Shown: positions 9,932 to 40,731 of the stretch, in pieces
Layout: every line of letters starts with the position of its first letter
How positions within the stretch are numbered: position 1 is the first letter of the stretch
IMG/VR virus record: IMGVR_UViG_3300050161_000195
Origin: a virus
Strand: one strand, 5' to 3'
Length of the DNA: 40,731 nt
Program-made: the position numbers and the translations under genes
Notes under the pieces: generated by a model
Seen by the model: only the letters and a program-made list of their open reading frames with translations
Told to the model about the DNA's origin: nothing
Databases searched by the model: none

Positions 9932-10106
9932 GCGGAAGCAGCCGATCGAGCTTGTTGGGGCGGGGCGCCGAATCGGCGCCCGCCGCATATATCACGATCT
10001 CACCCGTCGTCGTGATGGTCACCGTGCCCACGGCGATGCCCGCCGCCTGGCACCCTTTGACCGCGCGGGTGACATCGGCCTGATTGAAGGCGGCCCGGCG
10101 CGTCAT
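9918..10106 (-). CDS. Small protein overlapping the int start; candidate excisionase/RDF
   Basis: 62 aa (MTRRAAFNQADVTRAVKGCQAAGIAVGTVTITTTGEIVIY...). The 3' end overlaps the int ATG by 14 nt. The role is inferred from position only. Confidence 0.4.
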   Translation of the reverse strand: MTRRAAFNQADVTRAVKGCQAAGIAVGTVTITTTGEIVIYAAGADSAPRPNKLDRLLPHGQR

Positions 10107-10956: not shown

Positions 10957-11195
10957 TCGGCAATCCCGGCATAGTTGGGCAGGAGCGGTTGGCCCGGAAC
11001 CTTGTCGCCATGACCAAGCGTCCGCAGGGCTTCGGCATAGCGTTCGGCGGCCGCGCGCTGGGCGCGGGCAGTGGTCATGGCCAAGGCAGCCTGCCGCTCA
11101 TGTTCCTGTGCCTCCGCCGTTGCCTTACGGTAGCGATCGAACAGCACGCGCTCGGCCGTGCCCGGGTCAAACGGGTTGACGCGCACCCTGCTCAT
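10953..11195 (-). CDS. Hypothetical protein
   Basis: 80 aa. Start and stop overlap both neighbours. High GC3. Confidence 0.5.
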   Translation of the reverse strand: MSRVRVNPFDPGTAERVLFDRYRKATAEAQEHERQAALAMTTARAQRAAAERYAEALRTLGHGDKVPGQPLLPNYAGIAE

Positions 11196-12628
11196 TCGGT
11201 CGGCGCCCCTTCTTCAGTGTGGGCATCTTCGGCCTCGATCGCGGCCTCGGCCGCGGCTGCGCGGCGCGCCGCTTCGGCGGCGGCTTCTTCGTCGACCAAG
11301 CGTAGGGCTTCTTCGCGGCGGGCTTCCAGCTCGGCCACGGTGGTGCGGATCTGCACGGCGATCAGCACATGGTCATCGCTGGCATCGTCAGTTTCGACGG
11401 CGCACACCCATTCGTCCTGCGGCAAGATAAAATCGAGTGCCTGCCCGCTTTCGATCAGCTGGCGGGCGATCAATTGTCCCGCGCGAAACCCAGCTATCCT
11501 CTGGCGGCGGCGTTCTGCCCAATCCACTTCCTGAGGTGCTGGGAGCGCGTCACCCCCGGCCGGCGCCTCCTTCACCGGGCCGAAGTGGCCGAGGTATTCG
11601 AGCCCTTCGCCAGCGCCATCGATGCGATAGACGGCTACGCAGGGCTTGCGCTGGGCCTTTTTCGTGGCTTCCAGCTGGGGCCTCCAGCCCGTTACCTTCT
11701 CGAACCCATCGGGCGCCTTGGGCCAGTTCGGTGAGTGATCGTACCCGCCGAAGGACAGCAGGCCATCCTTGAACCCGTCCTTCTTGGCCTGCCCGCCCGC
11801 AAGCGTGGCGCCGTATTCCTTGGCCAGCTTTTCGAGCAGGGTCACGTCGATGATCCGTTCCTGGCCGGCATCGCCCATGAACATTTCGGCCTCGACCCGG
11901 CCGCCAGCGGCACGGTAATCATCGAGGCCGACGAAGCGGACCAGCTTGGAATCCAGCGGCAAGGTGCGGCCGCGCATGGCATCGCGGACGGTGGGCGCGT
12001 GGTGGGGCTGCCACTTGGCCTTTTCCTGGGCGGCGAAGACCTTGAGCTGGTGTTCGTGATCGCTGGTGATCGCATAGGCCTTGGCGCTTTCCACGCCGAT
12101 CTTGCCGGTGCGCAGGGCATCCAGCACTTCGGGGGCGAGGGCGGCGAGGCGCAGGCGACCTTCGACATGGGTGCGGGTGACGCCGAAGCGTTTGGCGCAG
12201 GTGGCGATCGGATCGCCCTCGCCCTTCTTCTCGGCCTGGTCGACGATCGCGGCGAAGGCTTCGAATTCGTCGGCCGGGTTCATGGCCACGCGGTGGAGGT
12301 TTTCCGAAAGGCTGGTCTGCCTTGCGGACTCGCGCGGTTCCACCATGACGGGCACGGGCCAATCGTGCTCCAGCCTGCCATCCTCGGCGAGCAGCTGCAG
12401 CGCCTGGAGGCGGCGGCCGCCGGCGACGACCTCGAACTTGTCGCCATAGTTGCTGCCTTCGGGCAGATCGACCGTGGAGAAATGGGCCGGGATGACGACC
12501 AGGTTCTGCTTCAGCCCGCTGGCGGCGATGTCTTCGGCCAGGGTGGCGATATCGGCATCGCGTTCGGTCTGGCGAACATTGAGCGTGGACAGGGCGAGGC
12601 AGTGAAGCGGCAGGGTCTGCATGGACAT
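11192..12628 (-). CDS. ParB-like nuclease/partition domain protein
   Basis: 478 aa from ATG 12628 (GAGGAT RBS; the track ORF extends to 12820). N-terminal LNVRQTERD...IAASGLKQNLVV...FEVVAGGRRLQAL ParB/Srx-type motif. Acidic Ala-rich C-terminus. Confidence 0.75.
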   Translation of the reverse strand: MSMQTLPLHCLALSTLNVRQTERDADIATLAEDIAASGLKQNLVVIPAHFSTVDLPEGSNYGDKFEVVAGGRRLQALQLLAEDGRLEHDWPVPVMVEPRESARQTSLSENLHRVAMNPADEFEAFAAIVDQAEKKGEGDPIATCAKRFGVTRTHVEGRLRLAALAPEVLDALRTGKIGVESAKAYAITSDHEHQLKVFAAQEKAKWQPHHAPTVRDAMRGRTLPLDSKLVRFVGLDDYRAAGGRVEAEMFMGDAGQERIIDVTLLEKLAKEYGATLAGGQAKKDGFKDGLLSFGGYDHSPNWPKAPDGFEKVTGWRPQLEATKKAQRKPCVAVYRIDGAGEGLEYLGHFGPVKEAPAGGDALPAPQEVDWAERRRQRIAGFRAGQLIARQLIESGQALDFILPQDEWVCAVETDDASDDHVLIAVQIRTTVAELEARREEALRLVDEEAAAEAARRAAAAEAAIEAEDAHTEEGAPTE

Positions 12629-12671
12629 GGTGGCGATCCTCAAATCGTGAAGGGGGCGGGGCGCAGCGCGA

Positions 12672-13696
12672 TCAGGCCTTGAGCTTGCAGTGGGAATCGC
12701 GGCAGGCGTTGACCTCGGCATGGGTGCACATGCGGTCGCACTGGTCGCAGAAGGCCTTGCCGCTGCGGGCGAGCGCGGCGATCGCCGCGGGGGAAGCCGC
12801 CCGGGCCGGGGCGCTGGCAAGGGGGGGCGTGGTTACGACCGGCGCTGCCCGGGATGAAGGCGGGAGAGCAGCGCCGGTCGCGCCAACCTTGCCGCGCGCC
12901 TGGTCAATGATGACGCGGGCGAGGGCGGCAGGGCCGGAAAGGACGGGGTAGCGTTCGCGGAAGATCTTGCCCCGCAGGATCCAGCCATCGGGATCGGCCT
13001 TGGCCAGGCTGGCGATGATGGCGGCGGCGCTGTCCTGCTCTTCCAGCAGGTTGACGAACAGGAAGCCCAGCGCATTGAGCAGGGTGGCGGCCTGTCGGAC
13101 CGGCTGATCCGGGTAGGCGGCGCGCAGGGTGGTGAGGCCGAAGCGGACAGCGTCGGCGCTCTTTTCGCGCAGCTGGCGGACCAGCATGGGCGCGCACTGC
13201 AGTTCACCCGGGCCGTAGGAGGCGACATTGGAATGGCGGCGGATGGTCCACCCCGTTTCCGCGATCATGTCCTGCACCAGCTTGGCATCGGCTTCGCCAG
13301 CGGCGAGCATGCCGAAGAAGATATCGGCCTGGCTGAGCCGCTGGCGCTGTTCGTTGAGGGCGACGAAGGTCTTGGCCTCTTCGCTGATGGCGATGCCGCC
13401 CAGGATCACGCAGGGCAGGTGCGGGATATCGCCCCGCGCGGCGGCGCCGGCGTGGCGGCCTGTCCATCGAGGATGAACAGGCCGCCATCGGCCCGGCGGC
13501 TGACCACCAAGGGCTGGCACAGGGTCCAGTCCCAGCCCTTGACCATGGCGGCGATGATCTTGCGCGAGGCCGGGCTATCGGTGGCGCGTTGATAGGCGCG
13601 ATCGACCGAAAGGCGATCGACGGAGCACCATTCCAGCGAGGGCGGATTGCCCTGTTGCGGTGGAAGTTGCGTTTCCTTTGCGGGGGTCTTGGCCAT
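12672..13696 (-). pseudogene. ParB N-terminal-like (DGQHR-type, DUF6551-like) gene split by a frameshift near 13452-13465
   Basis: Frame A (13696..13406) ends ...GGLFILDGQ then out-of-family sequence and a stop. Frame B (13520..12672) continues with GRHAGAAARGDIPHLPCVILGGIAISEEAKTFVALNEQRQRLSQADIF. Together they read as one ParB-like domain. Cys-rich C-terminus CDQCDRMCTHAEVNACRDSHC. Confidence 0.6.
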
Positions 13697-13770
13697 GGTT
13701 CAGTCCTTGGCGGCGCGGCGAGGTTCGATCGCGGCGAGGGTGGCAAAACAGGCGATGAGGAGCAGCGCGG

Positions 13771-14244
13771 TCACGCCGCCAGCCGATCGAATTCGGCATG
13801 GACGGGGGCGAGGGCCAGCAGGGTATCGGCGTGGCACCATTCGCTGGTGAGCGGGCACCAACAGGCAAGATCATGCCCGGCCAGCTGGTGCAGCCTGGTC
13901 ATCACCCGTTCGTGCAGGCGGTGGAGGCCATCGATCTCGGCCGGGTGAAAGCCCATCCGCTCAAGGGTGAGATCGCCGACCCTGCCGGCCAGCCATTCCT
14001 TATGAAGGATGACCGAGCGGGCGTGGTTCACGCCCCGGCCCTGGAAGGGATTGCCCCAGATCGTGGGGCGGCCGACATAGATTGTGCCTTCGGGCAGGAC
14101 ACTGCCCTTGCGGCGGGGCCGCTGGATGCGCTGGGCGCGCGGAACAGGGCCAAGGGTTGAACGCGGGGGCAAAGCCCCCGGCGTTCCGAGATGGCCCAAA
14201 GTGTACTCACACACTGGCCATCTCCACTGCGGCAAGTTCAACAT
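13771..14244 (-). CDS. DUF4326 domain protein
   Basis: GRPTIWGNPF and LACWCPLTSEWCHADTLLALA motifs. The true start is probably internal (GTG overlapping the upstream stop at about 14211), because 14207..14244 overlaps the preceding gene. Confidence 0.8.
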   Translation of the reverse strand: MLNLPQWRWPVCEYTLGHLGTPGALPPRSTLGPVPRAQRIQRPRRKGSVLPEGTIYVGRPTIWGNPFQGRGVNHARSVILHKEWLAGRVGDLTLERMGFHPAEIDGLHRLHERVMTRLHQLAGHDLACWCPLTSEWCHADTLLALAPVHAEFDRLAA

Positions 14245-15992: not shown

Positions 15993-16713
15993 ATCCGAAG
16001 AAGCGCTTCCATAGGGAAGGTTTGGGCTGGCGGATCGGTGCGACGAGAGTCGGTCTGATCCGGGCGGCCCCTTCAAGCCTTTCGATCAACTCGGCATCGG
16101 TGAGGATCGGCGCGTTGTATTTGGCCAGAAGTTCGCGGCTGGATCGGCAGAATTCGGCATGCAGTGTGGCGAGGGCCTCTACGGGCATTGCCCGGGTGAC
16201 TTTGCAGGACGGGCAATCAATGGCGCTGTCCGAGGTGATGCCGCCCAGCGGGAGGTTGTATATGGCCCCGCATTCGCAGGTGATCGGGATTATCATCGCC
16301 GAAATTATCATGGCCAGATGATCGGGAGCGGCGGCTTTGGTTGGCGCCGAAGTTGCGGGGGCCGTGAGGGTGGTTCTTTGCGATGGACCAGACCGGCCGT
16401 ATGTCCGGTGGGGGAGATCATCATCCGTAAGGGTCACGTCGAGTACGACGCCAAGGGCGCCGCCGGGGGCGCGGGCGATGTCCTTAATGGTGGCGGTGAC
16501 GCCCCGGCCTTGATCGAATATGGCATCGCGAAGCCAAGATGATCTTGCAATATAGCCGATGGTTTTGCCGCAGGCATTTTCTACGCGCAGCGCTTGGCTG
16601 TCGTAAGGGTTGCCTTCTTCGAAGCATATCCAAGCCCGTTCACCTGGTGATGTGCGACTTATTTCGGTCTGGTAGTTCGTTTCTCCGACTATCCCGACCG
16701 AATATAATTTCAT
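15991..16713 (-). CDS. HIRAN domain protein with C-terminal zinc-ribbon-like CxC...CxxC
   Basis: 240 aa from ATG 16713, which overlaps the repressor stop (ATGA). VGETNYQ...EEGNPYDSQALRV...GKTIGYIARS is the HIRAN signature. ITCECG...CPSCK follows. GC is lower than the surroundings. Confidence 0.8.
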   Translation of the reverse strand: MKLYSVGIVGETNYQTEISRTSPGERAWICFEEGNPYDSQALRVENACGKTIGYIARSSWLRDAIFDQGRGVTATIKDIARAPGGALGVVLDVTLTDDDLPHRTYGRSGPSQRTTLTAPATSAPTKAAAPDHLAMIISAMIIPITCECGAIYNLPLGGITSDSAIDCPSCKVTRAMPVEALATLHAEFCRSSRELLAKYNAPILTDAELIERLEGAARIRPTLVAPIRQPKPSLWKRFFG

Positions 16714-17318
16714 GATGTGCGTCTCGGCTTTTGTCGCACCCATCGGACTGGGGCGGCCCAGGCTACTTCCTGGTCTTCCATATCGGGCGCATTGAGTGAA
16801 CGAAGGGTGTAGCGGCCCGGCATGGTGCCGCGCGCAAATATCTTGAGGAACGTTCCGCCTTCGAGTGTGCGAACGGCGCAATATTCGCCGATTGCATCAG
16901 GGCTGATGCCATCGACCGTGCGATCGACGTAGACGATATCGCCATCCTCGTACTTCGGAAGCATGGAATTCCCGACGACCTGGAGCGCCATAATCTTGCC
17001 GTGCGCACCGGGCGGACGCGGGGCAAAATCATCGCTTTCATGATCGTCGCCGTTGAACAGCACTTCGCCACCCGCGCCGATGCGCCCCGATAGTTTCAAC
17101 TGTGGTTCGCTGATCAGATCATCAATGGTGATATCGAACACCTCGGCCAGGCGTACCAAGGTGCCCACGCGCACGTCGGATCGTTTGGCTTCAAAGATGT
17201 CGCGAATCGCCGTCTCGCCCAGCCCGGCCTTTTTGGCTAGCGGCTTACGCTTGATGTTGTGTTCATCCATCAGGCTTTGCAGCCGCGCCTTGAAGGCCTC
17301 GATGTCGAACTCTGTCAT
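16710..17318 (-). CDS. cI: CI/LexA-type repressor (XRE HTH + S24 peptidase)
   Basis: 202 aa from ATG 17318 (MTEFD...). HTH is KKAGLGETAIRDIFEAKR. S24 Ser is in VVGNSMLP and Lys in TFLKIF. Candidate Ala-Gly cleavage site in RIGAGGE. Confidence 0.9.
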   Translation of the reverse strand: MTEFDIEAFKARLQSLMDEHNIKRKPLAKKAGLGETAIRDIFEAKRSDVRVGTLVRLAEVFDITIDDLISEPQLKLSGRIGAGGEVLFNGDDHESDDFAPRPPGAHGKIMALQVVGNSMLPKYEDGDIVYVDRTVDGISPDAIGEYCAVRTLEGGTFLKIFARGTMPGRYTLRSLNAPDMEDQEVAWAAPVRWVRQKPRRTS

Positions 17319-17395
17319 GTGTGACATTTCACACATTTTTTGCCCTCGCCGACAGTCAGGACGTTTCACACCTTGACGGTGTGCAATATCACACC
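17318..17395. promoter_or_regulatory. Divergent immunity region with operators O3 (17318-17335) and O4 (17378-17395) and the rightward promoter
   Basis: TGTGTG-ACATTT-CACACA and GGTGTG-CAATAT-CACACC. A plus-strand TTGACG (-35, 17373-17378) abuts O4. A degenerate half-site TCACACC lies at 17365-17371. O3 covers the repressor start codons. Confidence 0.65.
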
Positions 17396-17409
17396 TTATG
17401 AGGGCGGGC

Positions 17410-17610
17410 ATGGCACTGCTCGATGACATTGAAGCTTTCCTGGAAGCGAACGCAGATGTGAGCCCGACCGCGCTTGGCGATCGCGCCTTGGGTGACCGCC
17501 ACTTTGTGCGCCAATTGCGCGGCGGTCGCCGGGTATGGCCGGAAACAGAGGCCAAGGTTCGGCAATTCATGGCCGAGCATTGCTCCACCGCAGACCAGGC
17601 GGAGGCCTGA
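17410..17610 (+). CDS. Small early regulator (Cro/CII position)
   Basis: 66 aa from ATG 17410 (GAGGG RBS; alternative ATG at 17398). It is divergent from the repressor. Function is assigned from position only. Confidence 0.55.
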   Translation: MALLDDIEAFLEANADVSPTALGDRALGDRHFVRQLRGGRRVWPETEAKVRQFMAEHCSTADQAEA

Positions 17611-17743
17611 GCGATGGGGGGGCAGGTATATCTGAATGGCGATAGCCGGATCGGGGCGGCGGCGCTGGCTGGCGCGGTTCGATCCTTTGAATTTGCACAG
17701 CCCCACGGGTTCAAGGCGCACTCCCGGCGCCTCCGTCTGGGGC

Positions 17744-17790
17744 GCGGGGCTGGCCTTTTTTGCCCCAAGGCCAGCCCCGCCTCTGTTTTG
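17744..17790 (+). terminator. Intrinsic terminator-like hairpin after the first rightward gene
   Basis: 12-bp GC stem (17744-17755 / 17769-17780), 13-nt loop, then CTCTGTTTTG. Confidence 0.55.
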
Positions 17791-29534: not shown

Positions 29535-30800
29535 ATGAACATGCACCAGCCCCGCGTCCGCGGGATCGTCTCCGCGCGTGCGGAAGCCAACCCGGTCGAT
29601 ATCAAGGCCGCGGTCGACAGGATCCACACCACCTTCGAAGAATTCAAGGCGGCCAATGAAGCCCGCCTCAAGGAGATCGAAAGGGGCCGCGAAGACGTGG
29701 TCACCACCGAAAAGCTCGGCCGCGTCAACGATGAAGTGACCCAGCTGACCGGCGCCATCAACGAGATGAAGGAATCGGTCGCTGCGCTCAAGCTCGGCGG
29801 CGGCGGCAAGCAGGGCCAGTCGGCCGAAGCGCGCCAGCATGCCGATGCGTTCAATTCGTGGTTCCGCAAGGGCCGCGAACCCGATGCCGGCCTGCGCGGG
29901 CTCGAGGTCAAGGCGGGGCTCACCACCCAGTCCGATCCCGATGGCGGCTTCCTCGTGCCCGAACAGATGGATGGCACCATCACCCGCGTTCTCGCCAACG
30001 TCTCGGCCGTGCGCTCCCTCGCCCGTGTCGTTTCGATCACCGCCAATGATTATGATGTGCTGGTCAGCAAGGGCGGCGCCGTTTCGGGCTGGGTCGGCGA
30101 GGAAGATGCCCGCGCCGTCACCGGTACGCCGCAGCTGTCGAAGATCTCGGTCAATTCCGGCGAGATCTATGCGCAGCCGGCCGCCACCCAGCGCGCCCTG
30201 GATGATGCCGCCTTCGATGTGGAATCCTGGCTCGCCGAAGAAGTGTCGATCACCTTCGCCGAACAGGAAGGCGCCGCTTTCGTCTCCGGCGATGGCGTGA
30301 AGAAGCCGCGCGGCTTCCTCACCGAAACCCCGGTCGCCAACGGCTCCTATGCCTGGGGCAAGATCGGCTTCGTCGCCACCGGCTCCTCCGGCGCTTTCGC
30401 CACGGCCGGCGCTGATAACCTGATCGCGCTCTACTATGCGCTCAAGGCTGGATACCGCAACGGCGCGGCCTTCCTCACCAGCGATGCCACCCTCGGCACC
30501 ATTCGCGGGTTCAAGGATACCACCAACAACTACATCTGGGCCCCGCCGACCAGCGACATGCCCGCCACCATCCTCGGCAAGCCGGTCGCCACCGATGATA
30601 ATATGCCGGCAGTCGGCGCCAATTCGTTCTCGGTCGCCTTCGGTAACTGGCAGCGTGGTTATCTGATCGCCGATCGCCTGGGCGTCCGCGTCCTGCGCGA
30701 TCCCTACACCTCGAAGCCCAACGTGCTGTTCTACACGACCAAGCGCGTCGGCGGCGGGGTGGTGAACTACGAAGCGATCAAGACGCTCAAGTTCGCCTGA
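29535..30800 (+). CDS. Major capsid protein, HK97 family
   Basis: 421 aa. N-terminal coiled delta-like region, DGGFLVPEQ, and overall HK97-type sequence after the protease. Confidence 0.92.
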   Translation: MNMHQPRVRGIVSARAEANPVDIKAAVDRIHTTFEEFKAANEARLKEIERGREDVVTTEKLGRVNDEVTQLTGAINEMKESVAALKLGGGGKQGQSAEARQHADAFNSWFRKGREPDAGLRGLEVKAGLTTQSDPDGGFLVPEQMDGTITRVLANVSAVRSLARVVSITANDYDVLVSKGGAVSGWVGEEDARAVTGTPQLSKISVNSGEIYAQPAATQRALDDAAFDVESWLAEEVSITFAEQEGAAFVSGDGVKKPRGFLTETPVANGSYAWGKIGFVATGSSGAFATAGADNLIALYYALKAGYRNGAAFLTSDATLGTIRGFKDTTNNYIWAPPTSDMPATILGKPVATDDNMPAVGANSFSVAFGNWQRGYLIADRLGVRVLRDPYTSKPNVLFYTTKRVGGGVVNYEAIKTLKFA

Positions 30801-30888
30801 TCCCTTCCCGGGTGGGGTGGCGGTTTAGGTTGGGGTTTCCCGGCCGCCGTCACCCCGTTTCGCAAGCTCAGTTCAAAGGACCAGTTCC

Positions 30889-31323
30889 ATGGAAGACATC
30901 CACTCCTGCGTGTTCATCGATACGCTGATCGCCAATGCCACCTATGCGGCCGACACTACCCCGGCCGCTGTCGATCTCCAGGGCTTCGATGCGGCCGAAA
31001 TCGTGCTCGCGCTCGGTGCCGGCGGCATTACCTTCAACGGCAGCAACAAGATCGAATTCGTCCTCACCCATTCGGACGATGGCACGACCTACACCAACGT
31101 CGCCGATGCCGATATGATGGGCGTTTCCGGCATTCAGAACGGCATCATCAAGGCGCTCGTTGCCGCCCAGAATGCGGCGATTGTCCGCTTTGGGTATAAA
31201 GGTTGCAAGCGCTACCTGAAGCTGCTGGCTGATTTCTCCGGCACCCACGGCACCGGCACCCCGATCGGCGCCTATGTCATCAAGGGCGAACCGGCGCTCG
31301 CGCCCACTGCCGCCCAGGCCTGA
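30889..31323 (+). CDS. Hypothetical virion-module protein (possible head decoration/accessory)
   Basis: 144 aa directly after the capsid gene. Flanked by the 13-bp direct repeat GCCTGATCCCTTC (30795-30807 / 31317-31329). Confidence 0.6.
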   Translation: MEDIHSCVFIDTLIANATYAADTTPAAVDLQGFDAAEIVLALGAGGITFNGSNKIEFVLTHSDDGTTYTNVADADMMGVSGIQNGIIKALVAAQNAAIVRFGYKGCKRYLKLLADFSGTHGTGTPIGAYVIKGEPALAPTAAQA

Positions 31324-31356
31324 TCCCTTCGGAAAGCACCGGGCTTTCCCCACCTT

Positions 31357-31389
31357 GCCGGCGCCGGGCCCTGAACTCCCGGCGCCGGC
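31357..31389 (+). terminator. Perfect 12-bp stem / 9-nt loop hairpin (attenuator/terminator candidate)
   Basis: GCCGGCGCCGGG-ccctgaact-CCCGGCGCCGGC followed by CCTTTCC. Preceded by a second hairpin, GGAAAGC-accgg-GCTTTCC, at 31331-31349. Confidence 0.45.
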
Positions 31390-31417
31390 CCTTTCCATTC
31401 AGCCAGAGGCCACCGCC

Positions 31418-31972
31418 ATGCAGAAATCCGTCGCCATCCGCGATGCGCAGAACGATGCGATCGAAAGCACGATCGGCGTCAGCGCGATCCTCAAGATCCG
31501 CACCGGCGCCGCCCCCGCCAACTGTGCCGCGGCCGATAGCGGCACGGTCCTGGCCACGCTCAACCTGCCGTCGGACTGGATGGCGGCATCGTCCAGCGGG
31601 GTGAAATCCCTGCTCGGCACCTGGCAGGACAGCTCTGCCGATGCCAGCGGCGAAGCCTGCCACTTCCGCTTCTACAATTCCGCCGGCACCACCTGCCATC
31701 TGCAGGGCGTCGTCTCGGCCCCCTGGCAGGCCAGCAAGCCCTATGCCGTGGGCGCCAGCGTCCACAATGGCGGCAGCGTCTATCGCTGCACCGCCGCGGG
31801 CACCTCGGCCAGCTCGGGCGGCCCCAGCGGCACTGGCGGTTCGATCACCGATGGCACCGTCACCTGGGCCTATGTCCAGGGCAGCACCGAAATCACGGTC
31901 GATAATGGCACCTTCGTCACCGGCCAGCAGTTCACGGTCAATACCTTCGCCATCACGGCCTCTGGCGCCTGA
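31418..31972 (+). CDS. Hypothetical structural protein with a fibre-type carbohydrate-binding-like motif
   Basis: 184 aa from ATG 31418. NGGSVYRCTAAGTSASSGGPSGTGGSITDGTVTWAY resembles the YxC..GTSG....DG.V.W motif seen in phage fibre proteins (from memory). Confidence 0.55.
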   Translation: MQKSVAIRDAQNDAIESTIGVSAILKIRTGAAPANCAAADSGTVLATLNLPSDWMAASSSGVKSLLGTWQDSSADASGEACHFRFYNSAGTTCHLQGVVSAPWQASKPYAVGASVHNGGSVYRCTAAGTSASSGGPSGTGGSITDGTVTWAYVQGSTEITVDNGTFVTGQQFTVNTFAITASGA

Positions 31973-31981
31973 GGCTGATCC

Positions 31982-32365
31982 ATGGCCTTCGCCAACCGCA
32001 TCAAGGTCACCACGGCCACCACGGGCACCGGGGCGCTGACCCTGTCGGCCACGGGCGTTCGCGATGCGACCAATGGCGATTGCCTGGCCCCGGCAGAAGT
32101 CCTGTCGGAACTGGGCAATCGCTCGGTCAGCTACACGATCCAGAGCGGCGCATCCTTTGCGCAGGGCACGGGCATGGTATCCGCCGATGGCCTGACGCTT
32201 GCCCGCGATCCGAACGAAGTCTCGTGGAACGGCACCACCTACGGCGTTGGCCTGCTGACCCTTTCGGGCACGTCCACCGTCATGGTGACCCCCAAGGCTT
32301 CGGACTTTTCCGCATCATCCATCGGCCTGTCCAGCGCGATCGTGCGCGGCGCCGTATCCCTGTGA
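31982..32365 (+). CDS. Hypothetical structural protein
   Basis: 127 aa. The N-terminus MAFANRIKVTTATTGTGALTLSATG is of a type common in phage fibre-like proteins. Confidence 0.5.
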   Translation: MAFANRIKVTTATTGTGALTLSATGVRDATNGDCLAPAEVLSELGNRSVSYTIQSGASFAQGTGMVSADGLTLARDPNEVSWNGTTYGVGLLTLSGTSTVMVTPKASDFSASSIGLSSAIVRGAVSL

Positions 32366-32373
32366 GGTAACCC

Positions 32374-32829
32374 ATGGCCGCGAATACCAGTCCGATCTAT
32401 GGCCGCACTCCCGATGTGCAGGTGGGCGGCGCTGTGCTTGGTCCCACCGCCGTCACCGCGCAGGATGGCACCGGGGCCACCCCGATCATCTTCATGGCCG
32501 ACGCTACCGAGGGTGGCTGGGTGGATCGCGTCATCCTGAAATCTGTCGGCTCGCCTGCCGCCACCGTGGCGCGCATCTTCTTCTGCACGTCCAACGTCGC
32601 GGCGGGCTCGTTCACCCCGGGCACCACCAACACGGCCGCGAATACGGCGATGATCGCGGAAGCCTCGCTGGCCGCCGTCGCCACATCCAACCTCGTGGCG
32701 CAGAACGACGTGGTGATCCCGCTGCGGATGCAATTGCCGCCGGGGACCAAGCTGATGATCGGCTTCGGCACCTCCACCGGCGCGGCGGGCACTGGCTACG
32801 CGGTCTGCACCGTGGGGAGCAAATACTGA
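32374..32829 (+). CDS. Hypothetical structural protein
   Basis: 151 aa. High GC3. The stop overlaps the next ATG. Confidence 0.5.
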   Translation: MAANTSPIYGRTPDVQVGGAVLGPTAVTAQDGTGATPIIFMADATEGGWVDRVILKSVGSPAATVARIFFCTSNVAAGSFTPGTTNTAANTAMIAEASLAAVATSNLVAQNDVVIPLRMQLPPGTKLMIGFGTSTGAAGTGYAVCTVGSKY

Positions 32830-33764
32830 TGATCCTGCCCCCGCTACCCGCCGATGGCGTGACGGACTGGATGTTCATCGGCCCCCAGCAAGACACAACG
32901 ACGACGCGCGGGTGGAAAGCGTGGCAGAAGCCTGCTGGCCGCTCGTGGGTCTATATCTTTGCCCAAGCGCCGGGGGCTGGCGGTGGCGGCGGCTTTACCG
33001 GCGCTGCGGGTACGGCGCGCGGCGGCGGGGCTGGTGGCGGGTCTGGCATAGCTATGAAGCTCCTTTTTCCCGCCTTTCTGATCCCGGATGTTCTTTATTT
33101 CAGGCCGGGCACTGGTGGCGCAGCAGGCGCTGCGTCTGCGGCGGGGACTGCTGGCACAGGGCATTTTGCCAGCATCGCGCCGGATTCTACGGCCCAAAAT
33201 TTTATCGTTACAACCACAGCTGCTGGTGGCGGGGGGGCGGGAACTGCATCTGCCGGGGGCACTGCTGGAACGGCCGGGGTGCTCATTACGGGTGCTATGT
33301 CAGGTTTGGCTTTTACCCAAACTACGGGGACGGCCGGCTCTGCGGGTGCAGCGGGGGGCGCGCAGACTGGCGCGGTCGGCGGCGCTATCACACCCCCAAC
33401 GACTTCGACCTCGCCCGCCACAGGCGGCGCAGGCGGCGGCGGCGTGGGCACGGCCAACACCGACTTCGCGGGCGGCGGCATCACGGGCGCGGGGCCATGG
33501 CCAACCATTGCGGGCGGCGCTGCTGCTGCAGGCGCAGGTTTGCCCGGCTTCGGCCTGAACTGGCACATCGATCAATATGCGATGCGGCGCCTGCCGTTCC
33601 TGACCTCGGGCGGCACGGGCGGCGGCACGGCGGGCGCATCCGGCACGGGCGGCAAGGGCGGCGATGCTGGCTGGGGCAGTGGCGGCGCTGGCGGTGGCGG
33701 CGGTGTCACCGGCGGCGCTGGTGGTCGCGGCGGCGATGGCTTCTTCCTGATCGGAGCATTTTGA
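32829..33764 (+). CDS. Glycine-rich domain protein
   Basis: 311 aa. Repeated GxGGxGG / GTAG tracts (GAGGGGGFTGAAGTARGGGAGGGSG ... GGAGGGGGVTGGAGGRGGDGFFLIGAF). Confidence 0.65.
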   Translation: MILPPLPADGVTDWMFIGPQQDTTTTRGWKAWQKPAGRSWVYIFAQAPGAGGGGGFTGAAGTARGGGAGGGSGIAMKLLFPAFLIPDVLYFRPGTGGAAGAASAAGTAGTGHFASIAPDSTAQNFIVTTTAAGGGGAGTASAGGTAGTAGVLITGAMSGLAFTQTTGTAGSAGAAGGAQTGAVGGAITPPTTSTSPATGGAGGGGVGTANTDFAGGGITGAGPWPTIAGGAAAAGAGLPGFGLNWHIDQYAMRRLPFLTSGGTGGGTAGASGTGGKGGDAGWGSGGAGGGGGVTGGAGGRGGDGFFLIGAF

Positions 33765-34072
33765 TGGCGCGGCTGTTCAACATGCAGGGCCAGTGCTGCG
33801 GCAATATCGAAGGCGCCGCGCCCGATGGATACTGGTCCCGCGCCGATGATGCGCCCGACCAGATGACCGCGCTGGACTTTCTCGACAAGATCGGGCCGCG
33901 GCGCTTCGCCTCGGTCTGGACCGCATCGCTGGCCCATCCCGAAATCGCCTTCCCCATGGTGCGGGGGCTGGCCGCGCAGATGATCTATCTGTCGGAAAGC
34001 TTCCCGTCGCTGATCGCGCTGGAACAGGCGGGCGTTCTGTCTGCCGGAACCGCTCTGGAAATCTGGGCCTGA
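33764..34072 (+). CDS. Hypothetical protein
   Basis: 102 aa from ATG 33764, overlapping the upstream TGA. It is only the 3' end of track ORF 32912..34072; the rest of that ORF is an alternative frame of the Gly-rich gene. Confidence 0.5.
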   Translation: MARLFNMQGQCCGNIEGAAPDGYWSRADDAPDQMTALDFLDKIGPRRFASVWTASLAHPEIAFPMVRGLAAQMIYLSESFPSLIALEQAGVLSAGTALEIWA

Positions 34073-34073
34073 T

Positions 34074-34889
34074 ATGCTGGGCTTCGCGCCTCTCGGATAT
34101 GTGCCGCTGGGCGCGGTGCCGGTTACGTTCTCGCGGGCCACCAATGGAGCAGTTGTTGACGCTGCCGAGGGTCTGGCTTCTGCCGCTGCCCTGGCGCTTC
34201 AGGGCGCAGCGACGGTAGCAGATGGTGCCGAGCTGGGAACAGCAACGGCCACGCTCATCCTGCAGGCTTCGGCAGCCATCGCGGACGCTTCCGAATCCAT
34301 CGCCGCCGCATCTGCTCTCGCCGCGCAGGCCGCGGCCGCTATCGCCGATGCGGCGGAAGCCGTTGCTGCCCCTGCCGCCCTGGTCCTGCAGGGCGGGGCA
34401 GCCATGGTCGAAGCGGCTGAAACCGTCTCGGCCCAGGCTGTTGCAGGCGGCGCCCAGGGCGGTGCGGTCGATGGTCCCGAAGTTCTGGCCGCCGCCGCCG
34501 CCCTGGCGCTTCGCGCCACGGCTGCGATCGCCGATCCCGCTGAAACCGCATCCGGGCAGTCTGCCTCACCCCGTGCGGCAGTGGCAGCCATCGCGGATGG
34601 GGCGGAGGGCATCGGCGCTTCCGGTTCCGTTCCGCTCCGCGCCGCAGCAACCATCGCGGATGGGGCAGAGGCTGTGGCGGCGCCGGCCATGGTGCTCATC
34701 CTCGGCGGCCTGTCGGTGTCCGATCCGGCCGAGGCGATCGATGCCGCTTCCATCATCCGTGTCCCGCCACGCGCCGCCACCGTGGCGCGCCCGGGCCTGC
34801 AATCGGCATCGCTGCGGGTACGCCAGCTTTCCGGCGGCGCTCGCCCCGCCAATGTCCAGTCCGCCCGCCGCCGCCCGGCGGCGAGCTAA
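34074..34889 (+). CDS. Ala-rich protein with about ten 21-aa tandem repeats
   Basis: 271 aa. N-terminus MLGFAPLGYVPLGAVP, then repeats of consensus AE.(I/V).A....L.LQ..AAIADG. Basic C-terminus. Confidence 0.6.
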   Translation: MLGFAPLGYVPLGAVPVTFSRATNGAVVDAAEGLASAAALALQGAATVADGAELGTATATLILQASAAIADASESIAAASALAAQAAAAIADAAEAVAAPAALVLQGGAAMVEAAETVSAQAVAGGAQGGAVDGPEVLAAAAALALRATAAIADPAETASGQSASPRAAVAAIADGAEGIGASGSVPLRAAATIADGAEAVAAPAMVLILGGLSVSDPAEAIDAASIIRVPPRAATVARPGLQSASLRVRQLSGGARPANVQSARRRPAAS

Positions 34890-37568: not shown

Positions 37569-37990
37569 GCGAGGTGACCCGCCCGGCCAACGCCGAACGC
37601 GGCGAAATCGTCCTGAAGCTGGAAGGGGAAGACTATGTCCTCCGCCCCAGCCACGAAGCGATCATGGCCTTCGAGGAGCTGACCGGGCGCGGCCTTTACG
37701 AGCTGGCCACCGATGCCATCAACCGCAAGCTCCGCCTGACCGAAACCGCCCAGATCGCCACCGAATGCATCCGTGCCTGGGGCCGGGCCACCGGCACGGC
37801 CTCGATGCAGCAGGTCAATGCCCGGCGCGTGGGCGAACTGATGCTTGAAGGCGAAGGTGGGTTCAAGGCGGCGGTGGAAGCCGTTGGCGCCATGCTCGCG
37901 CTCGCCTGCACCGGCGGGTACACCGCCCAGGGGGAGCAGAAGGCGGCGGCGACGATGACGGAGACGAAGGCGACGCCCGCCGCCGCCTAG
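37565..37990 (+). CDS. Tail assembly chaperone (GTA g10-like, gpG equivalent)
   Basis: 141 aa. GEIVLKLEGEDYVLRPSHEAIMAFEELTGRGL resembles gene-transfer-agent family chaperones. Confidence 0.7.
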   Translation: MSEVTRPANAERGEIVLKLEGEDYVLRPSHEAIMAFEELTGRGLYELATDAINRKLRLTETAQIATECIRAWGRATGTASMQQVNARRVGELMLEGEGGFKAAVEAVGAMLALACTGGYTAQGEQKAAATMTETKATPAAA

Positions 37991-38109
37991 CCGGCCTCGC
38001 CGCCGCTGCCCTGGGCTGGCGCGCCGATCATTTCTGGCATGCCACCCCGCATGAATTCTGGACCGCGATCGAAGGGTGGAAGCGGTTCAATCAACCCGGC
38101 GAGGATTGA
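37565..38109 (+). CDS. Probable -1 frameshift extension product of the tail chaperone (gpGT equivalent)
   Basis: The -1 frame is open at 37849-38109 with no ATG/GTG/TTG. It encodes ...LAGLAAAALGWRADHFWHATPHEFWTAIEGWKRFNQPGED, which resembles the DUF2376/rcc01693 family as I recall it. The G-run CAGGGGGAG at 37928-37936 is a possible slip site. Confidence 0.5.
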
Positions 38110-38151
38110 CCAATCTGCGCTATCGTGTGGCGGCGAATCGAGGGGGGCAAC

Positions 38152-38391
38152 ATGAAGCGGTTGGTTGTGGTGCTCGCAGTGCTGCTGGTTGGTTGTTCGG
38201 CAAAGGCGCGCTGGAGCGAACATGTTTATGAAAACGTGAGCGAAGCTGGCACGTCGGTCGATATGTGCCGCGTTGCCAGAGAAACCCGCCAGCTTTGGGC
38301 CGAAGTCGGCGATAGCCACAAAGAGACTGAATGGGCTGCGACTGCAGCGATGGACTGTCTCAGGGCTTCGATGCAGCATCCCGGTCAGTAA
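38152..38391 (+). CDS. Small lipoprotein (moron)
   Basis: 79 aa. GAGGGGGG RBS. Signal peptide plus lipobox MKRLVVVLAVLLVG|C. Lower local GC. Confidence 0.7.
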   Translation: MKRLVVVLAVLLVGCSAKARWSEHVYENVSEAGTSVDMCRVARETRQLWAEVGDSHKETEWAATAAMDCLRASMQHPGQ

Positions 38392-38572
38392 GACTTCGCT
38401 GAACCAGCCTGCGGATAGCCTCAGGCCGCGAGAGCGGCTCGGGTTGTTCGGCGATCCATGCGTCGAGGTCAGCCAAAGCGTCCGAATGGAGCCTTACCTG
38501 AATTGGAACGCCTTGCCCGGTTGGCTGCGGCCCACGCCGTTTCCTTGGTTGCAAAGTTTCTTGACCTGACAT
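38360..38572 (-). CDS. Ribbon-helix-helix (CopG/Arc-type) DNA-binding protein, antisense to the late operon
   Basis: 70 aa from ATG 38572 (the track ORF extends to 38857). VPIQVRLHSDALADLDAWIAEQ...SRPEAIRRLVQRSL fits a strand-helix-helix pattern. Confidence 0.65.
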   Translation of the reverse strand: MSGQETLQPRKRRGPQPTGQGVPIQVRLHSDALADLDAWIAEQPEPLSRPEAIRRLVQRSLTDRDAASKP

Positions 38573-38603
38573 AGAAATCTCGGTACCAAAGAAGCAGGCC
38601 GAA

Positions 38604-38621
38604 CGGAAGCTGTAACTTCCG
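38604..38621. promoter_or_regulatory. Palindrome CGGAAG-CTGTAA-CTTCCG in the divergent intergenic region (candidate RHH operator)
   Basis: Perfect 6-bp arms, located between the RHH gene start (38572) and the plus-strand gene at 38641/38653. Confidence 0.4.
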
Positions 38622-38652
38622 CCCGGCCCTGACCTGAACCATGGAGAACGCC

Positions 38653-39099
38653 ATGACCCAAGCTGTCCCCGGCAATAGTGCCGATGCGCCCATCCCGGCA
38701 ACGGGAATTTCTGTCGATCTTTCCCGCCGCGCCATGCTCGGCGGCGCCGCTCTCGCCGGGGTGCTGCTCGCCACGCCGGCTCTGGCCTTGCCCAGCGCAG
38801 ACCCCGACGCCCGGTTCTGGCCTCTTCATGCCCGGTGGCAACATTTGGAAGAGGCATGGGACGGGGATGATGGGCTTGCCGGCGGTGATGATGATGCCGT
38901 ATGGGATGCCGCCGCAGCCGAAGTCAGCGCGGCGTTCGATGCCATGATGCTGGCGCCGATCTCCACCGTGGCCGCCGTCCTTGCCAAGTTCAAGGCCTGC
39001 GCCGGGCAGGAAATCCTGCTCGATGATCGCAGCCTTACCACTCTCGATGCGATCGAACGTGATCTTGCCCGCCTTGCCGCTGCGGAGGGCCGGGCATGA
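38653..39099 (+). CDS. Tat-signal exported protein of unknown function
   Basis: Twin-arginine signal SRRAMLGGAALAGVLLATPALALP. GGAG lies 6 nt upstream of ATG 38653 (alternative ATG at 38641). Confidence 0.65.
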   Translation: MTQAVPGNSADAPIPATGISVDLSRRAMLGGAALAGVLLATPALALPSADPDARFWPLHARWQHLEEAWDGDDGLAGGDDDAVWDAAAAEVSAAFDAMMLAPISTVAAVLAKFKACAGQEILLDDRSLTTLDAIERDLARLAAAEGRA

Positions 39100-39509
39100 A
39101 CGCGCTGGCCACGGGGTGGGAACGCTTGCCGGAGGGAGAGCTCACCGCGCCGGCCGATTTCGAATGGGTCTATGCCTTCGGCAACGAGGGCGGCTTCCGC
39201 ATCGGCGCATCATCGTGCCCGGCCCGCGCCATGGCGGATCTGTACGGGCCAGTCGGCCGGCAGGATCGCTCCGCATGGTATATCCGGGGTTGGTACGAAG
39301 GGCACCGGGCGAAACAGGGCATTGCCGCCCATTTCGAACGGCGGCTGCAGGTCGGCGAATGGTTCATCGTGCCGATCAGCGAACTGTTGCAGGTAGACGT
39401 GCGCCGGCTCTGCGCCCGGCACCAGATCATGGGCGAAGGTACGCCCGAATATGCTGCCGAACTGGCCTTCCGGGCGGATCAGGCCCGTCACGCTACCGCC
39501 CTGACCTGA
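39096..39509 (+). CDS. T5orf172 / GIY-YIG-like domain protein
   Basis: 137 aa. WVYAFGNEGGFRIGASSCPARAMADL ... HFERRLQVGEWFIVPISEL matches the G..KIG.S..P..R...L ... EWF pattern. The ATG overlaps the upstream stop (ATGA). Confidence 0.6.
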   Translation: MNALATGWERLPEGELTAPADFEWVYAFGNEGGFRIGASSCPARAMADLYGPVGRQDRSAWYIRGWYEGHRAKQGIAAHFERRLQVGEWFIVPISELLQVDVRRLCARHQIMGEGTPEYAAELAFRADQARHATALT

Positions 39510-39600
39510 CCTGCCGCCTGACCTGACCTGATCGAACGAACCGAACCTCAATCCAGCCCCCGGTGCCTCGCGCCGGGGGCCAGAACCCGTTGGAGCAACC

Positions 39601-40731
39601 ATGGTCGATACCGATGTCAAAACCCTGATGCTCCAGGTCGATGCCTCGATCGAACTGCTGCGCAAGGAACTCGACGGCGGCGCCGGCGTGATGGACCGGT
39701 TTAGCGCCCGGGCCGGCACGATGGCCGATCAGGTGGAACGCGCGATCTCCACCATGGGCAAGAACTTCCCCAACCTCAGCCAGCGCGCCGCCGATGCCGC
39801 CAGCCAGATGGAAAAGGCCTTCAATGACAGCTTCGGCGCGATCCAGCGCATGGCTGATAAGGCGATCACCATGCCCGCGGTGAACGGCGGCGGGCTGGAC
39901 GTGGGCGCCACCGAAATGCGTGCGGCGGCCGATGCCGCCCGCACGCGGGCCGCCGCGCTGGAACAGATCGAGGTGGCTGCCCAGCGCGCGGCGGCGGGCG
40001 AAGGCGTGATGACTGCGGAAACCCGCGCCTATCTTCAGGCCGCACAGGCCGCCCGGATTGAGGCTGAAGCCCACGCCCGCGATCTAATGCGTGAAGCAGG
40101 CGCGCTCGAACGGATCGAAATCGAACTGGGCAAGGCCGGCGCCGCGCAGCAGCTTATGGCTACCCGCGGCGCAGCGCTTCATCAGCAAACCGGCCTGCAG
40201 CGTGCCGGGATGCAGCAGTTGGCGTTCCAGATTTCTGACGTATCGACCCAGTTTTCCATGGGCACGCCGCCCATGCAGATCTTCGCGCAGCAGTCCTCGC
40301 AGGTCATCCAGGCAGTGGGGATGATGACCACGGAGAGCAAGGGGCTGCTCGGCATCCTTGGGAACCCGTGGACGCAAATCGTTGTCGCCGCGACAGTCGT
40401 ACTTGAACCGTTCATCGCCAAGCTATTCGACTCGCAGGATGCTCTGACCGGCATAGGAGACAAGGCTGAACAAGCGATGGAGCGCGTGCGGCGATCGTTG
40501 GCTCAGGTCTCCGCCATTACCGACGCCGCCGATGAAGCTACGAGGAAGAAGGTAGAGGCGATGGCTGAGGTAGCGCGCCTCAACCGCCAGATCACCCAAG
40601 CTCAGGGTCAACGCGATTCCTTTATTGAAGCAAACGGGTCTGAGGATGCAGGTGGTCTCAACTTCAACATCACTCGGCTCATGGCCCAGCGCGATGCCGC
40701 GCAAGAGGCGATTAAGCAGGCGGACAATTCT
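39601..40731 (+). CDS. Tail tape measure protein, 5' portion (continues at nt 128 of the window via the circular junction)
   Basis: ATG 39601 with a GGAG RBS. Open to the window end. GMQQLAFQISDVSTQFSMGTPPMQIFAQQSSQVIQAVG is a typical TMP core segment. The ORF is absent from the track only because it has no stop inside the window. Confidence 0.85.
   Translation, partial: MVDTDVKTLMLQVDASIELLRKELDGGAGVMDRFSARAGTMADQVERAISTMGKNFPNLSQRAADAASQMEKAFNDSFGAIQRMADKAITMPAVNGGGLDVGATEMRAAADAARTRAAALEQIEVAAQRAAAGEGVMTAETRAYLQAAQAARIEAEAHARDLMREAGALERIEIELGKAGAAQQLMATRGAALHQQTGLQRAGMQQLAFQISDVSTQFSMGTPPMQIFAQQSSQVIQAVGMMTTESKGLLGILGNPWTQIVVAATVVLEPFIAKLFDSQDALTGIGDKAEQAMERVRRSLAQVSAITDAADEATRKKVEAMAEVARLNRQITQAQGQRDSFIEANGSEDAGGLNFNITRLMAQRDAAQEAIKQADNS
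40605..40731. repeat. Terminal overlap, exact copy of 1..127
   Basis: See the first feature. Confidence 0.95.

Follow-up and report, generated by a model that had tools for sequence, protein, structure and literature searches.

A probable capsid cement gene and a portable, probably host-adhesive cassette between the capsid and head-tail adaptor genes of a temperate HK97-type siphophage

Polyglycine-rich brush adhesins have been studied structurally in mycobacteriophages, in one cyanophage, and in Salmonella phage S16. In the mycobacteriophage Bxb1 (PDB 9D93), the brush protein gp33 is carried at the tail tip on a wing formed by gp30 (base) and gp31 (arm). In the cyanophage Pam3 (PDB 7YPX), receptor recognition has been ascribed to the domains of TNF-like and glycine-rich type in the fibre, whose Gly motifs are conserved and whose distal tip is variable, and the separate chaperone gp25 is absent from virions (PMC9608196). 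In the podophage GP4, the dodecameric head-to-tail adaptor is ringed by a 15-mer of Gp77, and a separate “rope” protein is interlocked with this collar and carries five fibre-I dimers, while the collar protein of the myophage Bas63 has the rope as an extension at its N-terminus (PMC11445570, PMC12609058). Here, we describe a block of seven open reading frames (ORF1 to ORF7) at positions 30,889 to 34,889 of the IMG/VR virus record IMGVR_UViG_3300050161_000195, a stretch of 40,731 nucleotides that will be called the window. The window is the genome of a temperate HK97-type siphophage, and the block lies between its major capsid gene and its gp6-like head-tail adaptor gene.

We give a probability of roughly 80% to the reading that this block combines a capsid cement gene (ORF1) with a portable host-adhesion cassette (ORF2-7). 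The adhesive character of the cassette is deduced from the homologies of ORF5, the carbohydrate-binding module (CBM) of ORF2, the homology of ORF3 to a fibre, the synteny with fibre loci, the ORF5 paralogues, the variable cargo at this position, and the absence of any other accessory fibre gene in the window genome outside the block. The brush itself is already known; here it is paired with an uncharacterised jelly-roll protein, a protein that bears a CBM, a short anchor, and a repeat scaffold. The features of the region, with lengths in amino acids (aa) and E-values (E) of family matches, are as follows.

29535..30800, + strand: major capsid protein, left boundary of the slot (PF05065 Phage_capsid, E 3e-79; phrog_10)
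30814..30856, + strand: GC-rich hairpin directly 3' of the capsid gene (the stretch 30801-30888 folds at -39.4 kcal/mol, z -2.5 versus shuffles)
30889..31323, + strand: ORF1, 144 aa
31331-31349 and 31357-31389 (12-bp GC stem), + strand: two hairpins 3' of ORF1 (the stretch 31324-31417 folds at -41 kcal/mol, z -2.9)
31418..31972, + strand: ORF2, 184 aa
31982..32365, + strand: ORF3, 127 aa
32374..32829, + strand: ORF4, 151 aa
32829..33764, + strand: ORF5, 311 aa
33764..34072, + strand: ORF6, 102 aa
34074..34889, + strand: ORF7, 271 aa
34902..35450, + strand: gp6-like head-tail adaptor, 182 aa, right boundary of the slot and candidate docking ring (PF05135, E 1.4e-5; phrog_442, E 6e-23)

The first-pass annotation of this DNA, made from the sequence alone, had reported seven ORFs between a capsid and a connector gene. 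All seven are found with these lengths and coordinates, the independent JGI calls give identical lengths, and the Pfam matches agree with the two flanking assignments. The overlapping stop and start codons it had pointed out are present as TGATG at 32827-32831 (ORF4/ORF5) and 33762-33766 (ORF5/ORF6), and its two hairpin regions fold as described, the second being a pair of hairpins. A longer, 232-aa reading of ORF2 from position 31274 also exists; the 184-aa start is preferred because the homologues are 183-187 aa long and because the 144 nt upstream of it hold hairpins. The GC content at third codon positions (GC3) is 0.79-0.86 in ORF1-4 and ORF6 versus 0.83 in the capsid gene, and in ORF5 and ORF7 it is skewed by Gly and Ala codons. 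Full-length homologues occur elsewhere for ORF1-6, whereas for ORF7 only the N- and C-terminal segments and the repeat organisation recur. Based on GC3, the homologues, two confident structure models, and the lengths that support the ORF2 start, all seven ORFs are taken as coding. The only tandem DNA repeats in the block are short Gly-codon arrays in ORF5, the repeats of ORF7 being too diverged at the DNA level.

The central protein of the cassette is ORF5, in which 29% of the 311 residues are Gly. Its AlphaFold2 model (predicted local distance difference test score, pLDDT, 91.3; predicted TM-score, pTM, 0.89) and the Foldseek comparison describe a TNF-like beta-sandwich extended by stacked glycine-rich strands. 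In the PDB, the model matches the Bxb1 tail tip (9d93 chain Qa, E 6e-11, probability 1.0, 23% identity) and the Pam3 fibre gp24 (7ypx_A, E 3e-4, probability 1.0), and it also matches the ALK glycine-rich domain. A profile built from 121 ORF5 homologues finds the Bxb1 chain that the depositors named “Tail wing brush, gp33” (E 1.3e-5), and this alignment includes a GGGGG...GGGGGGG N-terminal motif and a GGDGxVxI C-terminus. ORF5 itself has no Pfam match at E <= 0.1; many of its homologues carry PF21722 Gly_rich_2, which reaches 38 bits against a cut-off of 24.3 in the P0132 homologue. By fold and profile, ORF5 is thus a predicted polyglycine-rich brush or fibre-tip protein.

The likeness to Bxb1 gp33 covers the fold, the profile match, and both terminal motifs, and it extends to the length (~270-310 aa in both) and to a gene position at the end of an appendage gene group. 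The two systems differ in that the Bxb1 brush is mounted on its wing at the tail tip of a phage with a mycobacterial host, whereas ORF5 is encoded between capsid and adaptor genes in a phage that probably infects an alphaproteobacterium, and its partners ORF3 and ORF4 are unrelated to those of gp33. Bxb1 gp31 and gp32 were tried as counterparts of ORF3 and ORF4 and show no similarity to them. With Pam3 gp24 and Salmonella phage S16 gp38, ORF5 shares the combination of a TNF-like and a glycine-rich domain, conserved Gly motifs, and a variable distal tip; the structural match is to Pam3 7ypx_A, and the likeness to S16 gp38 rests on the description of that protein. The small ORF6, directly 3' of ORF5, sits where the chaperone gene gp25 would be in Pam3. 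In contrast to Pam3 gp24, which docks on the baseplate through an N-terminal helical domain, ORF5 has no such domain.

The ORF5 family shows conserved Gly motifs that alternate with variable, indel-rich segments. Column entropies of 0.7-1.7 are seen in the Gly motifs, as against 2.5-3.6 together with indels for residues 111-130, 151-170, 187-199, and 241-260. Together with the kinship to receptor-binding fibres, this makes ORF5 a candidate receptor-binding adhesin. Two or three ORF5 paralogues stand in tandem behind a single ORF4 homologue in several relatives (which are cited here by locus label where they have to be told apart), namely L012/L013, L014, and L072. The paralogues lie at 10451-13245 in L072, 8358-11096 in L014, and 2241-4098 in L012, with the N-terminal ~125 residues conserved and the remainder diverged. 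This duplication suggests host-range expansion by adhesin duplication. As a separate observation, five shorter contigs from five samples (L004-L008) match the window with 100% identity over the stretch that runs from the terminase gene to ORF4, and all of them end 57-77 codons into ORF5 (32829-33060), inside the GGGGG...GGG motif. The shared end could reflect alternative alleles or paralogues, or a loss of coverage in GC-rich DNA during assembly.

ORF4 is the regular neighbour of the brush gene. Its AlphaFold2 model (pLDDT 88.8, pTM 0.84) is an eight-stranded jelly-roll of the TNF/C1q-like type, and Foldseek matches in the PDB are at fold level only (TM-score 0.36-0.48), including VP2 of infectious bursal disease virus (IBDV, a birnavirus), CD40L/C1q/adiponectin, ExsFA/BxpB, and the C-terminal domain of a Bdellovibrio fibre. 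The sequence profile of ORF4 finds nothing in the PDB, and in BFVD the model matches only unnamed, uncharacterised phage proteins. The family has at least 760 members, none of which carried a Pfam domain or a name. ORF4 is 38% identical over its full length to gp23 of Rhodobacter phage RcDormio (E 3e-24). In nearly all loci examined, one to three ORF5 homologues lie immediately 3' of the ORF4 homologue, and this regular pairing points to a role as partner of the brush, putatively as its base, adaptor, or folding partner.

The loci in which the pair and its companions are found are listed below. Greedy chaining of the neighbouring genes over-called some ORFs in GC-rich DNA; it served only as a guide, and cases were checked against precomputed gene calls.

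Rhodobacter RcC-cluster phages (RcDormio): gp23/gp24 (= ORF4/ORF5) after the fibre-like gp22, itself after a GTA-type distal tail protein
46 prophage loci, mostly of Hyphomicrobiales/Aestuariivirga and Rhodobacterales: a gp22-like fibre directly upstream of ORF4-ORF5 in 32 of 46, a Gp80-like gene in two, and an ORF2-like gene in one
L012: the upstream gene is a Mtd_N/DUF5907 receptor-binding protein
L057: the upstream gene is a collagen-repeat fibre
L034: the upstream neighbour, one gene away, is a Phage-tail_3/Rcc01698_C protein
L070 and L075, prophages: ORF4-5-6 at the end of the tail module, beside a Dam methylase homologous to that of the window, and not in the head-neck slot
L072, SU10/GP4-like podophage contig: Gp80 (fibre I), a 157-aa protein, ORF3 homologue, ORF4 homologue, three ORF5 paralogues, a 505-aa ORF7-like protein, Gp77 (fibre-tail adaptor), and a 294-aa fibre with an ORF3-like N-terminus
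P0005 contig, a close relative with an ORF4 86% identical: proteins of 131, 126, 151, 304, and 505 aa followed by Gp77, after lysis genes
L077, P22-like podophage: ORF3-4-5 and a protein starting with MLGF

The order gp22-gp23-gp24 of RcDormio is the arrangement of most of the prophage loci. In RcDormio, gp23 is homologous to ORF4 and gp24 to ORF5, whose N- and C-terminal motifs it shares. The three genes carry hypothetical annotations, and the paper describing the phage is silent on them. The RcC phages differ from the window in that the pair occupies the canonical tail-fibre position and counterparts of ORF2, ORF3, ORF6, and ORF7 are absent. These contexts bear on an alternative in which ORF2-7 form conventional side appendages of the tail tip, either a wing or brush as in Bxb1 and Pam3 or a side fibre, and only the gene position has been relocated. 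The best solved relatives of ORF5 are indeed tail-tip and baseplate components, ORF4-5 follow a tail fibre at the end of the tail module in the majority of prophage loci (32/46) and in the RcC phages, and close relatives carry ORF4-5-6 after tail or lysis genes, beside the Dam methylase. Moreover, the tail module of the window, which closes with a 717-aa Phage-tail_3 protein, lacks a side-fibre gene, and a free docking role at the tip is plausible for that reason. We rate this alternative as only a little less likely than a mounting at the neck; what tells against it recurs around the adaptor gene, to which we return below.

ORF2 appears to consist of a conserved N-terminal domain and a C-terminal module like those of CBM families 5/12. 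The N-domain matches phrog_3758, annotated “virion structural protein” (E 2e-21), and the family comprises more than 7,490 proteins of about 184 aa. The carbohydrate-binding-like motif seen in the first-pass annotation holds in part: the C-terminal match to CBM_5_12 (PF02839, E 4e-4) scores 20.7 bits, below the cut-off of 26.2, and PF02839 itself is carried by several homologues that are 52-63% identical to ORF2, one of which is named “carbohydrate-binding protein”. L080 has an ORF2 homologue in the same slot; others belong to the tail cluster of a GP4-like podophage (L078) or stand beside ORF4-5 (L036 and L104). ORF2-like and Gp80-like genes take the same position upstream of ORF3/ORF4 in different loci. 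A relationship between the ORF2 N-domain and GP4 Gp80 (fibre I, PF23140) was considered and rejected, as there is no Pfam match and the hhalign probability against a Gp80 alignment is below 1%.

ORF3 has no match in Pfam or PHROGs. In L072, L076, and L077, homologues with 62-65% identity stand upstream of ORF4, with either no gene or one small gene intervening. An iterated local hidden Markov model (HMM) extends the ORF3 family to the N-terminal ~100 residues of the 294-aa fibre that follows the Gp77 collar gene in L072, and on this homology ORF3 is a predicted stand-alone fibre-anchor (N-terminal) domain. ORF3 was also compared with the N-termini of the GP4 fibres gp75 and gp76, to which it is unrelated (hhalign probability 0.6%). 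ORF6 has homologues of 47-63% identity directly 3' of ORF5 in L070, L075, L012, and L013, and no family match in Pfam, PHROGs, NCBIfam, PADLOC, or the PDB, tail-fibre chaperone and assembly families included. From its position after ORF5 alone, we infer a putative assembly factor. Its size and position also gave rise to the idea that ORF6 could be the Gp77 collar; this was discarded, since there is no Pfam match even at E 5 and a local Gp77 HMM misses ORF6.

Several ORFs of the cassette are thus without an annotated family, and the slot is variable in a phage that is temperate (with an integrase and a CI-like repressor), which would also suit a non-structural moron cargo that serves lysogenic conversion, exclusion, or defence. 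We find this very improbable: the PADLOC search of ORF1-7 returned no defence family at E <= 0.01, the genes are co-oriented and translationally coupled within the late structural operon, and no moron promoter or terminator signature surrounds ORF2-7. In addition, ORF5 is homologous to a solved virion component, and the family of the ORF2 N-domain is annotated as structural.

ORF1 is likely to be a capsid cement or decoration protein of the Bbp16 / 8CJZ type. Its homologues stand directly after the capsid gene in two uncultured phages (ctOK67 and ctUhy936) and in Streptomyces phage Chymera, with 54%, 40%, and 32% identity, and the Chymera homologue gp7 (32%) is annotated “capsid cementing protein”. 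ORF1 matches phrog_5707 (E 2e-19), and its family has 982 representatives at 50% clustering. In the PDB, a profile of 117 family members scores best against 8cjz_B, a “Capsid Decoration Protein” (E 0.0016), and next against 3j4u_H, the BPP-1 “cementing protein” (E 0.25); weak matches to PF21190 Bbp16 occur in 27 of the 117 (best E 0.001). Like Bbp16 (PDB 3J4U, PF21190), the 8CJZ protein, and Chymera gp7, ORF1 is ~140 aa long and encoded directly after the capsid gene. It differs from them in that its matches are below threshold, the comparison being one of sequence profiles only. Two points tell against the assignment: ORF1 itself has no Pfam match, with all cement matches under the curated thresholds, and the E-values of the two structural hits are weak. 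It is made because the lines of evidence, although individually weak, are mutually consistent.

ORF1 is bracketed by hairpins, one after the capsid gene and two after ORF1 itself. The hairpin at 30814-30856 is not called a canonical terminator, as it lacks a long T tract; it probably stabilises the mRNA or terminates transcription in part. The hairpins would fit a high-output unit of capsid gene and ORF1 from which less transcription reads through into ORF2-7. ORF1 is inherited with the capsid gene and is not a part of the cassette: it keeps its place behind the capsid gene irrespective of the genes that come next, and ORF1 and the cassette are each also found without the other. The same facts bear on the possibility that ORF2-7 are head fibres or decoration on the capsid shell, for example anchored on the ORF1 cement, like the head fibres of phi29 or the head spikes of RcGTA. 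The block does follow the capsid and cement genes directly, ORF2-like or other cargo stands immediately behind the capsid gene in relatives, and phrog_20658, whose annotation is “head decoration”, is weakly matched by ORF2 (E 0.016). However, besides the independent occurrence of ORF1 and cassette, the homologues of ORF3-5 are mostly found in tail-fibre contexts and with unrelated capsids, including those of podophages, and the hairpins set the capsid gene and ORF1 apart from ORF2-7, which suggests a copy number below the need of a capsid-wide decoration. A capsid location is accordingly rated as improbable.

The slot between the capsid and adaptor genes behaves as a variable cargo site in the genomes compared. 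After the ORF1 homologue, the connector follows almost directly in ctOK67, and one small gene follows in Chymera. In ctUhy936 (L010, MW202897.1), the cargo consists of four other genes, the last of which, directly upstream of the head-tail connector, encodes a 708-aa protein annotated as a GDSL-like lipase/acylhydrolase (10843-12969). Such enzymes are characteristic of tail spikes that modify the receptor. L080 is related to the window phage (TerL 55%, capsid protein 39%, and adaptor 42% identity). The head module of the siphophage L076 (Mu-F, PF09950 capsid, PF22758 cement) is unrelated to that of the window. Their slots are organised as follows.

L080: an 81-aa protein, ORF2 homologue (65%), a 189-aa protein, a 134-aa protein, a 372-aa 20-residue-repeat protein whose C-terminal tail resembles that of ORF7, then the adaptor directly
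L076: Gp80, a 67-aa protein, ORF3 homologue (62%), a 62-aa protein, ORF4 homologue (81%), ORF5 homologue, and a 671-aa MLGF repeat protein
L076, next gene, 13417-14175: a 252-aa protein with a weak N-terminal PF23148 Gp77 match fused to the PF13262 E217_gp27 head-tail connector family

The position directly upstream of the adaptor therefore recurs in three genomes (window, L080, and L076) with two unrelated head modules; it is atypical for the ORF4-ORF5 module yet recurrent. The neck adaptor of L076 appears, from the fusion, to carry its own fibre-docking domain. Both the recurrence and the fusion to this weakly matched fibre-adaptor domain speak against mere side appendages of the tail tip. 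The first-pass annotation had stated that the connector normally follows the capsid gene directly, which is too strong for the lineage of the window, and it had treated the seven genes as one unit. The synteny comparison that it proposed bears out a cassette for ORF2-7, which are portable and exchangeable, and not for ORF1, which travels with the capsid gene. Bxb1 (L082, 930-4355) has its “tail collar fibers” (gp4) and “tail collar spacer” (gp6) genes upstream of those for lysis and terminase, a precedent for appendage genes away from the tail module.

ORF7 combines an MLGFAPLG motif at its N-terminus with about ten Ala-rich repeats and a C-terminal tail that is basic. The 21-aa Ala repeat noticed at first pass shows up as a clear periodicity of 21 residues, the motif starting at residues 49, 70, 91, 153, 174, and 195. 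Proteins starting with MLGF lie 3' of ORF5 in L014, L015, L072, L076, and L077; counting ORF7, five of the six MLGF proteins have a 20-21-residue periodicity, the exception being that of L014. Repeat proteins of 20-residue period without the MLGF start accompany the ORF2 homologues in L078 and L080. ORF7-type proteins are encoded immediately upstream of the Gp77 collar gene in L072 and the P0005 contig, of the Gp77-connector fusion in L076, and of the gp6-like connector in the window and L080. The window and L080 adaptors, which are 42% identical, both lie directly 3' of a repeat protein. This consistent adjacency to collar or adaptor genes is a further point against the tail tip.

GP4 offers the closest comparison for such an arrangement. 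Its gp79, encoded between fibre I (gp80) and the collar (gp77), has a 20-residue period, and ORF7-type proteins likewise have a period of about 20 residues and lie directly upstream of a collar or adaptor gene. The ORF3-4-5 cassette is also found between or beside Gp80 and Gp77 homologues in L072, L076, and the P0005 contig. In contrast, the window has no Gp77 or Gp80 homologue, and GP4 has no homologue of ORF4 or ORF5. From the gene adjacency, the ~20-residue period, and the collar/rope organisation of GP4, we read ORF7 as a putative rope-like scaffold that would dock at the adaptor and present adhesin subunits. Adding that L076 combines the same slot with a Gp77-like fusion, we tentatively place the appendages made by ORF2-7 at the neck (the head-tail junction), a placement to which we assign somewhat less than even odds.

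In the mechanism that we propose, virion presence, binding partners, the neck site, and a role in adsorption all go beyond the gene structure, family relationships, folds, and synteny observed, and the steps are worded conditionally. The products of ORF2-7 would be virion appendages. ORF5 would be the brush adhesin, using its conserved Gly motifs as a scaffold and its variable loops for contact with the host surface, and the trimer-type jelly-roll of ORF4 would be its regular partner, probably a base or adaptor. ORF3 would supply a short fibre-anchor domain, ORF2 would add a sugar-binding subunit of the CBM5/12 type, ORF6 would probably assist assembly, and ORF7 would serve as the repeat scaffold. 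As a rope, ORF7 would dock on or around the adaptor ring made by the next gene and display ORF2 and/or ORF3-ORF4-ORF5 units. The appendages would bind host surface polysaccharide reversibly, which may speed or broaden adsorption.

Several points weigh against this reading, and above all against the neck site. A podophage collar around the adaptor is a part of the tail, so that a link to Gp77 alone is no sign of a neck position in a siphophage. The scaffold role of ORF7 is the weakest link of the argument, a fibre shaft being just as possible as a rope for such a repeat protein. PF23148 Gp77 is found in none of ORF1-7, the adaptor, or the other window proteins, the local Gp77 HMM matching only L072, L074, and L076, and no Gp80 homologue was found in the window. 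GP4 gp79 was looked for as a deposited rope chain and is absent from the PDB by sequence. The contacts ORF3-ORF4-ORF5, ORF2-ORF7, and ORF7-adaptor are putative. In most cases the genes of the ORF4-ORF5 pair close a tail module, and the solved structures nearest to ORF5 belong to the tail tip or baseplate rather than to the neck (for Pam3, PMC9608196).

The complete form of the proposal is more demanding. It would make the window phage a long-tailed phage with a GP4-like rope-and-fibre apparatus at its neck, in which ORF7 sits on a gp6-type adaptor ring without an Ig-like collar and shows the CBM-bearing ORF2 and the ORF3-ORF4-ORF5 brush, and in which ORF4-ORF5 is an undescribed, widespread module that can be plugged into a neck, a tail tip, or a podophage collar. 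Taken as a whole, this picture is doubtful.

The window is a complete, circularly closed metagenomic phage genome, as follows from an exact 127-bp terminal direct repeat (1-127 and 40605-40731); its unique length is 40,604 bp when the repeat is counted once, and the same sequence is present as a 40.6-kb JGI contig. The GC content is ~65%. Megablast against isolated phages finds no nucleotide similarity, and blastn finds only short patches. The slot is preceded by TerL, portal, ClpP-type protease, and major capsid genes, and the adaptor is followed by a head-completion protein, a gp10-like protein, and the major tail protein. The distal tail genes encode a DUF6950 protein and the Phage-tail_3 protein, and further genes encode a lysozyme, a DnaG primase, and a D5-type helicase. 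The integrase, the CI-like S24 repressor, and the Dam-type methylase mark the phage as temperate. The coordinates of these genes and of the tape-measure gene are as follows.

39601 through the window end to 1177: tape-measure gene, 726 aa, wrapping the window ends
7816-8658, + strand: Dam-type methylase
8828-9988, - strand: integrase
16710-17768, - strand: CI-like S24 repressor

Two other regions of the genome deserve description. Directly 3' of the Phage-tail_3 gene lies a 169-aa protein (4954-5463) with no family match; the P0005 contig has a protein of the same length in the same position, and Microcystis phage Mae-JY02, which also has an ORF2 homologue, contains a 40%-identical stretch. 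A second variable slot, at 37987-39600, separates the tape-measure gene from the tail assembly chaperone genes and contains one ORF on the minus strand (37987-38379) together with + strand ORFs of 79, 152, and 137 aa; the 137-aa ORF has a weak T5orf172 match. The cargo of this slot differs in L080, where it consists of an opposite-strand tRNA_anti-like protein, a 152-aa protein, and a Phage_pRha protein.

With regard to function, the early impression that the contents are fibre- or adhesin-like rather than neck-like is borne out by the ORF5 brush, the CBM5/12-type module of ORF2, the fibre homology of ORF3, and the occurrence of ORF4-ORF5 at tail-fibre loci. Among the options that the first-pass annotation had offered, side fibres in an unusual location come closest to the evidence, and decoration fits ORF1 only. 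An entirely undescribed virion-associated system does not, as the central ORF5 belongs to an already described kind of receptor-binding module.

The compact ORF4-ORF5 brush module circulates among alphaproteobacterial phages, prophages, and podophages, and it offers a handle for the prediction and engineering of host range; for ORF4, this gives a context to a family of previously unannotated proteins. The capsid-to-adaptor slot is a site for adhesin cargo in at least two unrelated head modules, and annotators should not presume that the genes found there encode head or neck proteins. If the neck mounting proves true, it would link the collar fibres of podophages, the collar/whisker complexes of myophages, and the neck appendages of siphophages.

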